From: a plasmid
Strand: one strand, 5' to 3'
Assembly (NCBI RefSeq): GCF_056746865.1
Contig: NZ_JBWKMP010000003.1
DNA: 64,000 bases
In this document: in pieces, positions 26,040-26,972 of the stretch
How positions within the stretch are numbered: position 1 is the stretch's first letter
Layout of the letters: each line of letters opens with the position of its first letter
Translations under genes and position numbers: made by a program
The notes under the pieces: model-generated
Databases searched by the model: none
The model's input: only the letters and a program-made list of their open reading frames with translations
What the model was told of the DNA's origin: nothing

Positions 26040-26114
26040 GATGGTGTAGCTCAGTGGTAGAGCAGTTGGCTGTTAACCAACTGGTCGGTGGTTCGAATCC
26101 ATCCACCATCGCCA
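26040..26114 (+). tRNA. tRNA-Asn (anticodon GTT)
   Basis: Folds by hand into a cloverleaf: 7-bp acceptor GATGGTG/CACCATC, D-arm GCTC-AGTGGTA-GAGC, anticodon loop CTGTTAA, T-arm GGTGG-TTCGAAT-CCATC, discriminator G + CCA. Confidence 0.85.
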
Positions 26115-26116
26115 AT

Positions 26117-26192
26117 GCCGGTTTAGCTCAGTTGGTAGAGCGCCTGCCTTGTAAGCAGGATGTCAGCGGTTCGAGTCCGTTAACCGGCACCA
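26117..26192 (+). tRNA. tRNA-Thr (anticodon TGT)
   Basis: Acceptor GCCGGTT/AACCGGC, anticodon loop CTTGTAA, T-loop TTCGAGT, ends ACCA; 2 nt after tRNA-Asn. Confidence 0.85.
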
Positions 26193-26200
26193 ACACAACA

Positions 26201-26274
26201 GGTAAGGGTATTTTGCGACGTCGGAGATCGCCGAGCTTGGCAGAGGGTTCGAATCCCTACGAAGTACCCTTACC
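26201..26274 (+). ncRNA. tRNA-like element with canonical T-arm but non-canonical long terminal stem (tRNA pseudogene or tRNA-derived ncRNA)
   Basis: T-arm agggTTCGAATccct present, but the termini form a 10-bp stem (ggtaagggta/tacccttacc, extendable to ~15 bp with flanks) and no standard D/anticodon arms could be folded. Confidence 0.35.
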
Positions 26275-26380
26275 GTTGTGATGAATGCACAGGCTGATGT
26301 GCCGCAACTACAGTAGTGCGCGCTTTGCGGGGCTTGCTACAACCCTGTGTCGGAGTTCAGCACCGACCATCACAATCACT

Positions 26381-26467
26381 GGAGAGTAGGGAGCATGGTG
26401 CTCAAGCGGTCTTGAAAACCGTCCCATTGCGCAAGCGATGATGGTTCGATTCCATTACTCTCCGCCA
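26381..26467 (+). tRNA. Type II tRNA, probably tRNA-Ser (anticodon TGA)
   Basis: Acceptor GGAGAGT/ACTCTCC, anticodon stem-loop GCGGT-CTTGAAA-ACCGT, long variable arm, T-arm GATGG-TTCGATT-CCATT, G + CCA; D-arm linker slightly atypical. Confidence 0.55.
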
Positions 26468-26758
26468 GCGCAACGTTAAGAGTATTTGGCTAATTAAGCG
26501 AATGCCGGAAGCAGAACCGGATCACCAAATGCGTACAGGCGTCATCGCCGCCCAGTCAGCCAAATGCTCTTACCATTGCGGTGAATGCGGCTAAGCGCAC
26601 GCGGAACAGTTAAAACAGTAAAGGTGGTCTTTTTACTGGCGTAACGAGAATCCATAAGTGATCCGGCGTTAATTGTTAACTGGTTAACGTCACCGGGAGG
26701 CACCCGGCACCGCAACCTAACAGCAATGGCGTTTTGTCTTAAAAGGTGGCTGCAAGTG

Positions 26759-26887
26759 ATGGATTTTTGGGCGTTTGCCGATAAAAACCCGGAGTGGACA
26801 TTATTGTTTCTGCTGGTGGTTGCATACGGGGTAGAGCAAGCGGCAAAAGCCTTACGCGGTTCTGGCAAAAAGCGTAAGCGTAATTAA
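26759..26887 (+). CDS. Small hydrophobic peptide (42 aa) inside the tRNA cluster
   Basis: ATG with RBS aaggtgg; MDFWAFADKNPEWTLLFLLVVAYGVEQAAKALRGSGKKRKRN has one TM-like segment and a basic tail; below the ORF-track size cutoff. Confidence 0.3.
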   Translation: MDFWAFADKNPEWTLLFLLVVAYGVEQAAKALRGSGKKRKRN

Positions 26888-26896
26888 CAGTAATCT

Positions 26897-26972
26897 GGCC
26901 CTTTAGCTCAGTGGTTAGAGCGGGCGACTCATAATCGCACGATCACCGGTTCAAGTCCGGTAGGGGCCACCA
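26897..26972 (+). tRNA. tRNA with CAT anticodon, most similar to tRNA-Ile2 (lysidine type)
   Basis: Near-identical over the 5' half and anticodon loop (GGCCC.TTAGCTCAGTGGTTAGAGC.GGCGACTCATAATCGC) to the E. coli ileX-type sequence as I recall it; full cloverleaf, ends CCACCA. Confidence 0.8.

Follow-up and report, generated by a model that had tools for sequence, protein, structure and literature searches.

As judged from its sequence, the locus described here belongs to a D6/P1-type plasmid-prophage of E. coli, of which it forms the tRNA gene cluster, with four intact and co-oriented genes. Within the window, by which we mean the whole 64,000-nucleotide stretch of DNA that was analyzed, ARAGORN returned exactly four tRNA genes, Asn(gtt), Thr(tgt), Ser(tga) and CAT, all on the plus strand, and placed each of them where the first-pass annotation had proposed a cluster of Asn, Thr, Ser-like and CAU tRNAs (26040-26972). 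All four genes encode their 3′ CCA. The cluster lies in a stretch of ~2.6 kb that is otherwise nearly devoid of protein genes, and its features and those of its surroundings are as follows.

25051-25149, plus strand: long hairpin H1, upstream context (inverted repeat I1 with 38-nt arms; fold z = -8.9)
25128-25232, plus strand: STnc100-like module S1, overlapping H1 (alignment)
25753-25849, plus strand: long hairpin H2, upstream context (inverted repeat I3; fold -48.3 kcal/mol, z = -5.3)
26040-26114, plus strand: tRNA-Asn, anticodon GUU, 75 nt, G73, encoded CCA (ARAGORN; RF00005, 75.5 bits; PGAP tRNA-Asn)
26117-26192, plus strand: tRNA-Thr, anticodon UGU, 76 nt (ARAGORN; RF00005, 74.9 bits)
26193-26288, plus strand: long hairpin H3 in the Thr-Ser spacer (fold -41.4 kcal/mol, z = -5.3)
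26276-26380, plus strand: STnc100-like paralogous RNA module S2 (aligns with S3 and with the P1, P7 and W444 modules)
26381-26467, plus strand: non-canonical type II tRNA-Ser, anticodon UGA (ARAGORN; PGAP tRNA-Ser; D-stem covariation)
26466-26583, plus strand: long hairpin H4, just 3′ of tRNA-Ser (inverted repeat I2; fold -45.5 kcal/mol, z = -5.1)
26573-26717, plus strand: STnc100-like RNA module S3, leader upstream of the tciC-like ORF (RF02076 match; fold z = -2.9)
26759-26887, plus strand: 42-aa membrane-type ORF, TciC homologue, MDFWAFADKNPEWTLLFLLVVAYGVEQAAKALRGSGKKRKRN (ORF list)
26897-26972, plus strand: tRNA-Ile2 type, anticodon CAU, presumed lysidine-modified (ARAGORN; RF00005, 66.6 bits; PGAP tRNA-Ile)
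27194-27314, plus strand: STnc100-like module S4, after tRNA-Ile2 (direct repeats D2 and D4; alignment; fold z = -1.8)

E. coli plasmids of 94 kb, belonging to a group of ~90-95 kb phage-plasmids such as NZ_CP085065, are 99.9% identical to the window over the query, and RefSeq/PGAP already labels tRNA-Asn, -Thr, -Ser and -Ile in them. Given these annotated plasmids, the four-tRNA cluster lies far beyond chance. Using the general tRNA model of Rfam (RF00005, gathering threshold 29 bits), the Asn, Thr and CAT genes passed with E-values of 1e-12 to 1e-15. Rejection of the Ser-like or the CAU tRNA by covariance models had been named beforehand as the result that would count against the cluster; the CAU gene was accepted, and the Ser-like gene at 26381-26467 was not reported by RF00005 at its gathering threshold.

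The P1 repertoire named in the first-pass annotation (Asn, Thr and a CAU-anticodon tRNA-Ile) is indeed the one in the P1 record (NC_005856), which lists trnA, trnT and trnI, the only three tRNA genes that ARAGORN finds in that region of P1; trnI is described in it as tRNA-Ile2, CAT, '89 pct identical to ileX'. The gene order of the P1 ban operon, Asn-Thr ... tciC-trnI, is found in the window as well. In both, the Asn and Thr genes are 2 nt apart and are followed by an STnc100-like element, a tci gene and trnI, with TciC directly 5′ of trnI. The P1 trnT and trnI genes differ from their counterparts in the window by 1 and 2 nt, respectively, whereas trnA and the tRNA-Asn of the window are different alleles. 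P1 differs further in that it is devoid of the Ser gene, at the place of which it has plp/upl on the opposite strand, and in that it possesses tciA and tciB, the window keeping only a tciC-like ORF. Moreover, the P1 tRNA genes belong to the C1-controlled ban operon (Pban/Oban upstream, ban downstream), neither part of which is present in the window: the P1 C1 operator ATTGCTCTAATAAATTT had no match with up to 3 mismatches in the whole window, and downstream of the cluster the ban helicase was not found, Tad2-like, lpa-like and pacA genes following there just as they do in D6. Homology to P1 begins in this region only at 25896. With a pmgS-like gene upstream and Tad2-like/lpa/pacA downstream, the flanks of the locus are D6-like rather than P1-like.

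Among its relatives, the window shares the same four tRNAs with D6 (NC_050154), which has matching flanks (pmgS-like upstream, orf6/orf5/lpa/pacA downstream), as well as with P7 and the ~90-95 kb phage-plasmids mentioned above. D6 and P7 depart from the window in keeping tciA/tciB and in carrying one or two extra modules in the Thr-Ser spacer, and their records have annotation gaps (the CAU tRNA in D6, the Ser tRNA in P7). In other relatives, tRNA-Asn is replaced by Arg-UCU or by Arg-UCU plus Tyr, or an SPFH gene is carried. A similar set of rare-codon specificities is encountered in the virulent rV5-like Vequintavirus phages, the cluster of which comprises Arg-UCU, Tyr, Ser-UGA, Thr-UGU, CAU and Pro. 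Their Ser gene, together with ~85 nt of 3′ trailer, is 84-91% identical to that of the window, and the Tyr gene of D6-like relatives is close to the rV5-like Tyr gene, whereas sequence similarity is only remote for the Thr, CAU and Arg genes, and the genes follow one another in a different order.

Compared to their host counterparts, the tRNA-Asn of the window is 65% identical to asnT and the tRNA-Thr 80% identical to thrU. The CAU tRNA is closer to the host, in line with the proposed resemblance to ileX: 67 of 76 positions (88.2%) are identical to the K-12 chromosomal tRNA-Ile(CAU) gene, a gene type present in 5425 of 5426 E. coli genomes. Host ileX/ileY and the window CAU tRNA share the D arm, the anticodon loop and pairs 28:42 to 31:39. 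They differ at pair 27:43 (G•A in the window, G•U in the host), at pair 6:67 (U•G in the window, U-A in the host) and in variable-loop bases. Within the T stem, two pairs are exchanged, and since both exchanges are compensatory, the structure is maintained. The body of the CAU tRNA thus resembles host tRNA-Ile2 and not tRNA-Met.

The label that ARAGORN gives to this gene is Met(cat), and that of PGAP is tRNA-Ile. In initiator tRNA-fMet, positions 1:72 are mismatched and three G:C pairs follow one another at 29-31:39-41. The CAU tRNA has a paired G1-C72 and a 27-31 stem strand reading GGCGA, which rules out an initiator; the PGAP label and the alignment to K-12 tRNA-Ile(CAU) rule out initiator and elongator Met alike. 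Its acceptor stem, GGCCCUU/AGGGGCC, provides C4:G69 and C5:G68, as in the host tRNA, and these two acceptor pairs are the major EcTilS identity elements (PMC11947777). The gene encodes an Ile2-type tRNA, which would presumably need lysidine modification by TilS prior to charging by IleRS and reading of AUA.

The gene that RF00005 did not report is the one structurally unusual member of the cluster. An additional type II tRNA, probably Ser-UGA, had been predicted from the letters alone, and it is present: PGAP, by way of tRNAscan-SE, annotates tRNA-Ser in the identical plasmids, and the gene is also annotated in D6, with the remark 'apparent UGA Serine anticodon but AA not called by tRNAscan-SE'. 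Its description as an extra gene beyond the P1 set stands insofar as the gene is absent from P1, but it is not peculiar to the window, as P7, D6 and most relatives have it. The tRNA is characterized by an acceptor stem of 7 perfect pairs (GGAGAGU/ACUCUCC), A8, a G10•A25 mismatch followed by a D stem of 5 Watson-Crick bp closed by a 3-nt loop (UGG), a variable arm with a 5-bp stem and a GCAA loop, G73 and CCA. It is 64% identical to host serT, from which it differs in its D arm and with which it shares an identical anticodon loop. The type II tRNA-Tyr of a relative passes the general tRNA model at 47.4 bits, which indicates that the failure of tRNA-Ser is caused by the D arm and not by the long variable arm.

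To define this D arm, we made use of 18 diverse phage homologues (P1-like, rV5-like, T5-like, T4-like, Pseudomonas and Streptomyces phages). As a MAFFT alignment of the family put the D arm of a few sequences out of register, pairs were counted by a positional parse. At least nine stem variants keep 4-5 pairs in one register with a 3-4 nt loop. The 3-bp D-stem register proposed by ARAGORN was rejected, as it breaks in many homologues, whereas the 4-5 bp register covaries. The covariation shows, as far as sequence comparison can, that a non-canonical D arm, and not a false gene, underlies the covariance-model failure.

A reading in which the Ser-like gene, if not the whole set, is a non-functional, hitch-hiking remnant, the spacers being the debris of former tRNAs, could draw on the missing RF00005 report and the missing isotype assignment by tRNAscan-SE noted by the D6 authors, on the loss of the gene from P1, on the T-arm-like fragment GGUUCGAAUCC in the interior of hairpin H3 and on stem mismatches in relatives' Ser copies (D6 in the D stem, W444 in the anticodon stem), which suggest that selection on the gene may be weak in some lineages. 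It is nevertheless very unlikely: all stems of the window copy are intact, this allele is the commonest among 86 copies, compensatory covariation across distant phages extends from the D stem to the variable arm, the T stem and the acceptor stem, and Vequintavirus, T5-like, T4-like, Pseudomonas and Streptomyces phages have all kept the family.

In the E-value mode of Rfam, the best match of the Ser-like gene is tRNA-Sec (RF01852, 44.6 bits, below the gathering threshold of 47; 41-46.6 bits for the relatives' Ser copies), beneath which a lower-scoring clan match is suppressed. This match, together with a Sec-like D arm of long stem and tiny loop, could indicate a selenocysteine or suppressor-type tRNA, or a regulatory tRNA-like RNA, instead of an ordinary Ser decoder. 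We regard this as the most improbable of the readings considered. The anticodon is UGA, reading the Ser codon UCA, and not UCA; the anticodon loop is that of host serT; Ser anticodons (UGA, AGA, GCU) recur in related phage copies; and the acceptor and T helix measures 12 bp, compared to 13 bp in bacterial tRNA-Sec. A tRNA-Sec identity was rejected on the anticodon, the branch length and the sub-threshold score.

A closer parallel is provided by the (8/4) tRNA-Ser/allo-tRNA class described from bacteriophages by Mukai et al. 2017 (PMC5389517), according to whom tRNAs built in this way are charged with serine and function in E. coli translation. The characteristics of this class, a long variable arm, a G73/U73 discriminator, a Ser anticodon and a tRNA-Sec-like D arm, are all found in the window tRNA-Ser, which carries G73. 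Both also combine a 12-bp acceptor/T branch with a long D stem whose loop measures 3-4 nt, and both are picked up by the tRNA-Sec covariance model as near-misses. The published phage (8/4) tRNA-Ser sequences stem from marine and alpha-proteobacterial phage metagenomes and not from P1-, rV5- or T5-like coliphages (PMC5389517). As for the choice between an 8/4 and a 7/5 arrangement, a Watson-Crick A8-U65 and a wobble G49•U65 pair are both possible and both invariant in the subfamily of the window gene. In its nearest sister group U8•G65 can pair and G49/G65 cannot, which favours 8/4; among other compact-D phage tRNA-Ser, including those from a second IMG/VR scan, 7 sequences favour 8/4 and 4 favour 7/5.

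We then compared codon usage in 54 mechanically called ORFs of the window (15,101 codons) to that of a 50-kb sample of K-12 genes, taken as host reference. Three of the codons matched by the cluster were enriched: ATA (12.4 versus 3.1-3.3 per 1000 in K-12; 3.8-fold, rank 3 of 61), ACA (15.1 versus 5.5 per 1000; 2.7-fold, rank 4) and TCA (11.9 versus 6.5-6.8 per 1000; 1.7-fold, rank 8). By our own hypergeometric estimate, having three of the four tRNAs within the top 8 of 61 codon ranks corresponds to p ~0.006. Ranks 1 and 2 are held by AGG and AGA, codons read by the Arg-UCU found in the first slot of some relatives; the element's own cluster has no tRNA for its most enriched codons (AGG, AGA and CGA). 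For the Asn codons, enrichment is slight (1.2-fold, ranks 21-22), so that codon supply leaves tRNA-Asn unexplained, as it does the tRNA-Tyr of relatives.

These results suggest that the phage tRNAs probably supply decoding capacity for rare codons, helping to decode codons that the host reads poorly. We infer that the four tRNAs are transcribed, processed, modified, charged and of benefit to translation, in a model in which one transcript would hold the tRNAs together with the structured spacer RNAs, the precursor would be processed by RNase P and further RNases of the host, and host enzymes would mature and charge the products. Host TilS would convert the CAU anticodon to lysidine (k2C), allowing charging by IleRS and AUA reading, and SerRS would recognize the long variable arm and G73 of tRNA-Ser, its compact D arm notwithstanding. 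The net effect would be added decoding capacity for the A-ending codons AUA, ACA and UCA, which are read in the host by minor tRNAs and are several-fold commoner in phage than in host genes. A promoter/terminator scan yielded nothing above shuffle expectation; one weak sigma-70-like match was seen at 24728-24756, with no confident promoter. A terminator-like hairpin lies upstream of the tRNAs at 25552-25571.

The exception of tRNA-Asn raises the question of whether the main role is, instead of codon supply, the replacement of host tRNAs cleaved or depleted during infection, for instance by anticodon nucleases, retron or Septu effectors, Schlafen-type tRNases or colicin-like toxins. Both tRNA-targeting defences and phage tRNAs countering them are documented (PMC10264068, PMC12673091, PMC13096335, PMC13056530). 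In favor of such an insurance function, Asn or Tyr fill the variable first slots even though their codons are not enriched, the body of tRNA-Ser is far from that of serT, and the adjacent downstream gene (27425-28000) carries a Tad2-like anti-Thoeris domain (Pfam, 40.4 bits), indicating that the neighbourhood holds anti-defence cargo. On the other hand, a comparison to the host isoacceptors revealed no escape changes in the anticodon loops, the 7-nt loop being exactly the same in all four phage tRNAs; the escape mechanism of PMC10264068 is thus not seen in the cluster. Moreover, the Ile2 tRNA comes close to being a copy of that of the host, and replacement of lost tRNAs does not predict the strong codon enrichment for three of the four tRNAs. 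We consider it unlikely as the main role, and rare-codon supply the preferred reading.

The spacers between the tRNA genes are themselves structured, with hairpins of very high stability next to STnc100-like modules. The hydrophobic ORF of 42 codons that had been noticed among the tRNAs is real: situated between the Ser and CAT genes, it stops 9 nt short of the latter. PGAP starts it at a GTG (26756), giving a 43-aa hypothetical protein (WP_255097511.1). It has no Pfam match, is 37% identical to P1/P7 TciC, with the N-terminal motif FW-FADK-P common to both, and occupies the same position immediately 5′ of trnI. Its leader module S3 matches Rfam RF02076 at 26577-26714 (model positions 31-147 of 206) with 40.8 bits, below the gathering threshold of 47; the homologous modules of the W444 plasmid and of P1, P7 and D6 reach 47.0 and 33-43 bits, respectively. 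Module S2 ends 1 nt ahead of tRNA-Ser, and its closing helix UUGUGAUG/CAUCACAA covaries with UUGCGGUG/CACCGCAA, although its own fold is no better than shuffles (z = -0.4); the closing helix of S4 is GUUGUGG/CCACAAC. Among the hairpins, H3 has a closing stem of approximately CACAACAGGUAAGGGUA/UACCCUUACCGUUGUG, which its relatives keep around a different interior, and H2 has the stem motif AACAGG(C/U)AAGGG...CCCUUACCUGUU, as does H1. About 65 nt of the H4 interior are common to rV5-like virulent phages (alignment to FFH2 and rV5), and 26381-26550 is 84-85% identical to Vequintavirus genomes by megablast. H1 and S1 would presumably share one transcript with the tRNAs. Searched with Rfam in E-value mode, the 1.4 kb upstream gave weak, chance-level matches only, and a DicF-like match was not found.

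A more far-reaching and rather doubtful possibility is that the tRNA genes belong to a larger processed ncRNA array of ~25.05-27.31 kb, with hairpin arms as junctions for cassette exchange and a Ser body selected against tRNA-targeting enzymes. Here, tRNA genes may alternate with very stable 20-35 bp hairpins resembling RNase III substrates, interspersed with what may be STnc100/PasD-like sRNA modules, at least four in number and paralogous to one another. The conserved arms (...CUUACCGUUGUGAUGAAUGC...) may act as processing or recombination junctions, at which tRNA/sRNA cassettes may be gained or lost, or swapped by temperate P1/D6-like phages with virulent rV5-like ones. Selection for resistance to tRNA-targeting enzymes of the host may then have shaped the compact (8/4-type) Ser tRNA into a body specific to phages.

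Overall, the cluster is ordinary and previously annotated: the P1 tRNA genes are in the reference record, the Ser gene is annotated in D6, and RefSeq labels all four genes in identical plasmids, so that the cluster finding itself changes little. Its sole unusual member is the Ser tRNA with a compact, tRNA-Sec-like D arm, which covariation shows to be conserved across many phage lineages (coliphage, Klebsiella, Pseudomonas and Streptomyces); failure of a covariance model on this tRNA is not to be taken as the sign of a false gene. For three of the four tRNAs, and also for the Arg-UCU of relatives, the codon comparison supplies an argument in numbers. Finally, the cluster is modular, its slots and spacer modules varying between close relatives, which bears on how phage-plasmids trade accessory RNA genes.

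Scanning the full 64-kb window with ARAGORN, we identified four tRNA genes, every one on the + strand and with an encoded 3' CCA, at the positions that the first-pass annotation had assigned to them. The Rfam tRNA model RF00005 was run at its gathering threshold, and the 42-codon open reading frame within the cluster is listed alongside.

tRNA genes and small ORF of the cluster
26040-26114, + strand: tRNA-Asn(GUU); ARAGORN; RF00005, 75.5 bits
26117-26192, + strand: tRNA-Thr(UGU); ARAGORN; RF00005, 74.9 bits
26381-26467, + strand: tRNA-Ser(UGA); ARAGORN
26759-26887: 42-codon ORF between the Ser and CAU genes; TciC homologue
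26897-26972, + strand: CAU tRNA; ARAGORN; RF00005, 66.6 bits

E. coli plasmids of ~94 kb, NZ_CP085065 among them, match a 1.4-kb query at 99.9% identity; in NZ_CP085065 the corresponding positions carry PGAP annotations for tRNA-Asn, tRNA-Thr, tRNA-Ser, a hypothetical protein of 43 aa and tRNA-Ile. Among named phages D6 comes nearest, matching 84% of the query at 92.6% identity, and it shares the flanks of the window: upstream a pmgS-like gene, downstream orf6/orf5, an Lpa-like gene and pacA. The P1 repertoire given in the first-pass annotation was correct: trnA (Asn), trnT (Thr) and trnI, described as 'tRNA-ile2 (CAT) gene; 89 pct identical to ileX', all stand in the P1 reference record. The Ser-like gene is indeed additional to this set: P1 lacks it and carries plp/upl at its place, P7 contains it unannotated (L003, the P7 locus, 2745-2831; detected by ARAGORN), and D6 has it annotated with the remark that tRNAscan-SE assigned no amino acid. 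Conversely, the CAU tRNA is missing from the D6 RefSeq record and was found by ARAGORN (L001, the D6 locus, 4932-5007).

Covariance models accepted the CAU gene, while the Ser-like gene was absent from the RF00005 matches at gathering threshold; its top Rfam match in E-value mode was tRNA-Sec (RF01852), whose gathering score of 47 it missed with 44.6 bits. This near-miss arises because the D arm is Sec-like, and such near-misses were also found by Mukai et al. (PMC5389517). The acceptor stem (GGAGAGU/ACUCUCC) is perfectly paired (7/7) with discriminator G73, the anticodon loop CUUGAAA is that of host serT, and the variable arm has a 5-bp stem and a GCAA loop. The D arm is unusual, with A8 and G9 followed by a G10•A25 mismatch, five Watson-Crick pairs (GAGCA/UGCUC) and a 3-nt loop (UGG). 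This register is preserved across at least nine distinct stem sequences (e.g. GGGC/GCCC, CUGC/GUAG, GACCA/UGGUC and UGCUC/GAGCA) among 18 diverse homologues, which come from P1-like plasmids, from rV5-, T5- and T4-like phages and from one phage each of Pseudomonas and Streptomyces. The Ser gene is therefore part of a phage tRNA-Ser family that is conserved and under structural constraint. The 3-bp D-stem register proposed by ARAGORN breaks in many of the 18 and was rejected. Mukai et al. described (8/4) tRNA-Ser in bacteriophages, with a long D stem capped by a tetraloop, and showed that tRNAs of this kind are serylated in E. coli and active there (PMC5389517). Relative to that class, A8-U65 and G49•U65 are each possible and each invariant in the window's subfamily; its nearest sister group favours 8/4 over 7/5, and the other phage tRNAs with a compact D arm give a mixed picture.

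Between the window and rV5-like virulent phages, identity is 84-91% over the Ser gene plus ~85 nt of its trailer. The ~65-nt stretch conserved with these otherwise unrelated phages (26495-26560; about 495-570 in L008 and L009, the FFH2 and rV5 loci) has the sequence TAATTAAGCGAATGCCGGAAGCAGAACCGGATCACCAAATGCG..., lies directly 3' of tRNA-Ser inside a long hairpin, and is argued to be non-coding because of a 1-nt indel. Between tRNA-Ser and tRNA-Thr, ARAGORN also reports in both phages an unannotated tRNA-like gene of 99 nt whose anticodon loop is abnormal and whose variable arm is long (L008 590-688, L009 589-687).

The spacers are more than filler. In the gene-poor stretch around the tRNAs (~2.6 kb), long hairpins of very high stability form an array with four STnc100-like RNA modules that are paralogous to one another (parts at 25051-25232, 25753-25849, 26193-26380, 26466-26717 and 27156-27314). 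Four long hairpins (25051-25149, 25753-25849, 26193-26288 and 26466-26583) gave fold z-scores of -5 to -9, and the four modules have in common a 5' (U)UGYGRUGAAUGC motif, a 3' hairpin whose loop is AGGCA, and a closing helix that covaries. Module 26577-26714 is a sub-threshold match (40.8 bits) to Rfam STnc100, a prophage-associated sRNA family (bioRxiv 10.64898/2026.05.13.724894), and its homologues in P1, P7, D6 and related plasmids score 33-47 bits. The number of spacer units varies among the window, D6, P7 and related plasmids, and the additional units of D6 and P7 have their breakpoints, relative to the window, at a repeated ...CTTACCGTTGTG... motif.

The hydrophobic peptide ORF that had been noted is present and is a TciC homologue: its identity to TciC of P1 and P7 is 37%, it has in common with them an FW-FADK-P motif with a hydrophobic segment after it, and it lies at the same place just 5' of trnI. 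In P1, tciA, tciB and tciC precede trnI and the three tRNA genes lie within the C1-controlled ban operon, whereas the window lacks tciA and tciB. No P1-type C1 operator was found in the window, and a promoter scan gave no convincing match.

The proposed likeness of the CAU tRNA to host ileX holds, with 67/76 positions (88.2%) identical to a K-12 chromosomal tRNA-Ile(CAU) gene, matches of which kind occur in 5425/5426 complete E. coli genomes. The D arm, anticodon loop and stem pairs 28:42 to 31:39 are identical, and in the T stem two pairs have been exchanged by compensatory changes. For E. coli TilS, 4:69 and 5:68 are major identity elements and anticodon-stem changes impair its action (PMC11947777); the inspection of these elements found C4:G69 and C5:G68 as in the host gene. 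We infer that this tRNA would be a TilS-dependent AUA reader. An initiator tRNA was rejected, as initiator features are absent.

Codon usage in 54 window ORFs that were called mechanically, 15,101 codons in all, was compared with that of 39 annotated K-12 genes and of ORFs called likewise on the same 50 kb. ATA (3.8-4.0-fold over K-12; rank 3 of 61), ACA (2.7-fold; rank 4) and TCA (1.7-1.8-fold; rank 8) are enriched, unlike the Asn codons AAT and AAC (both 1.2-fold; ranks 21 and 22). This pattern supports a model in which three of the four tRNAs would supply rare codons, with tRNA-Asn outside this explanation. The strongest enrichment is that of AGG and AGA (5.3- and 4.6-fold; ranks 1 and 2), both read by the Arg-UCU tRNA found in Asn's place in relatives. 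A counter-defence role is a less probable alternative, in keeping with the adjoining Tad2-like gene; however, all four anticodon loops equal those of the host isoacceptors (asnT, thrU, serT and ileY), and therefore the published anticodon-loop escape signature is absent from 4/4 tRNAs.

This neighbour, the first gene after the cluster (27425-28000, +), encodes 191 aa with a Tad2-like Pfam domain (Thoeris anti-defence 2; 40.4 bits, cut-off 25) at the C terminus, and RefSeq uses two names for its homologues, 'Thoeris anti-defense Tad2 family protein' and 'MW1434 family type I TA system toxin'. Upstream of the cluster lies a very long ORF (14955-21485, +; 2176 aa). C4 antisense RNA is encoded twice in the window, by separate genes (69.6 and 77.1 bits; coordinates of these genes and their associated elements 12598-12650, 12719-12804, 54545-54623 and 54668-54755), one with an a1/b1 target element upstream and the other directly 3' of an isrK-like RNA (61.3 bits), suggesting that one element may carry two immI-type immunity or antirepressor control loci.

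Across 77 IMG/VR loci selected by a shared Ser anticodon arm, several layouts occur, most commonly Asn-Tyr-Thr-Ser, Asn-Ser, Asn-Thr-Ser-CAU, Arg-Tyr-Thr-Ser-CAU and Arg-Thr-Ser-CAU. The tRNA-Arg(UCU) of two close relatives (1741-1817 in both L005 and L006) and the window's Asn gene have identical acceptor stems, D stems, T arms and G73, and what sets them apart is essentially the anticodon arm plus an insertion in the D loop; the pair looks like an anticodon-arm swap on one tRNA backbone.

Taken together, the observation of a P1-like cluster with one extra tRNA is confirmed and its interpretation supported. The cluster is already known and annotated, and only the Ser tRNA with its compact D arm and the array of structured spacers merit a further look.
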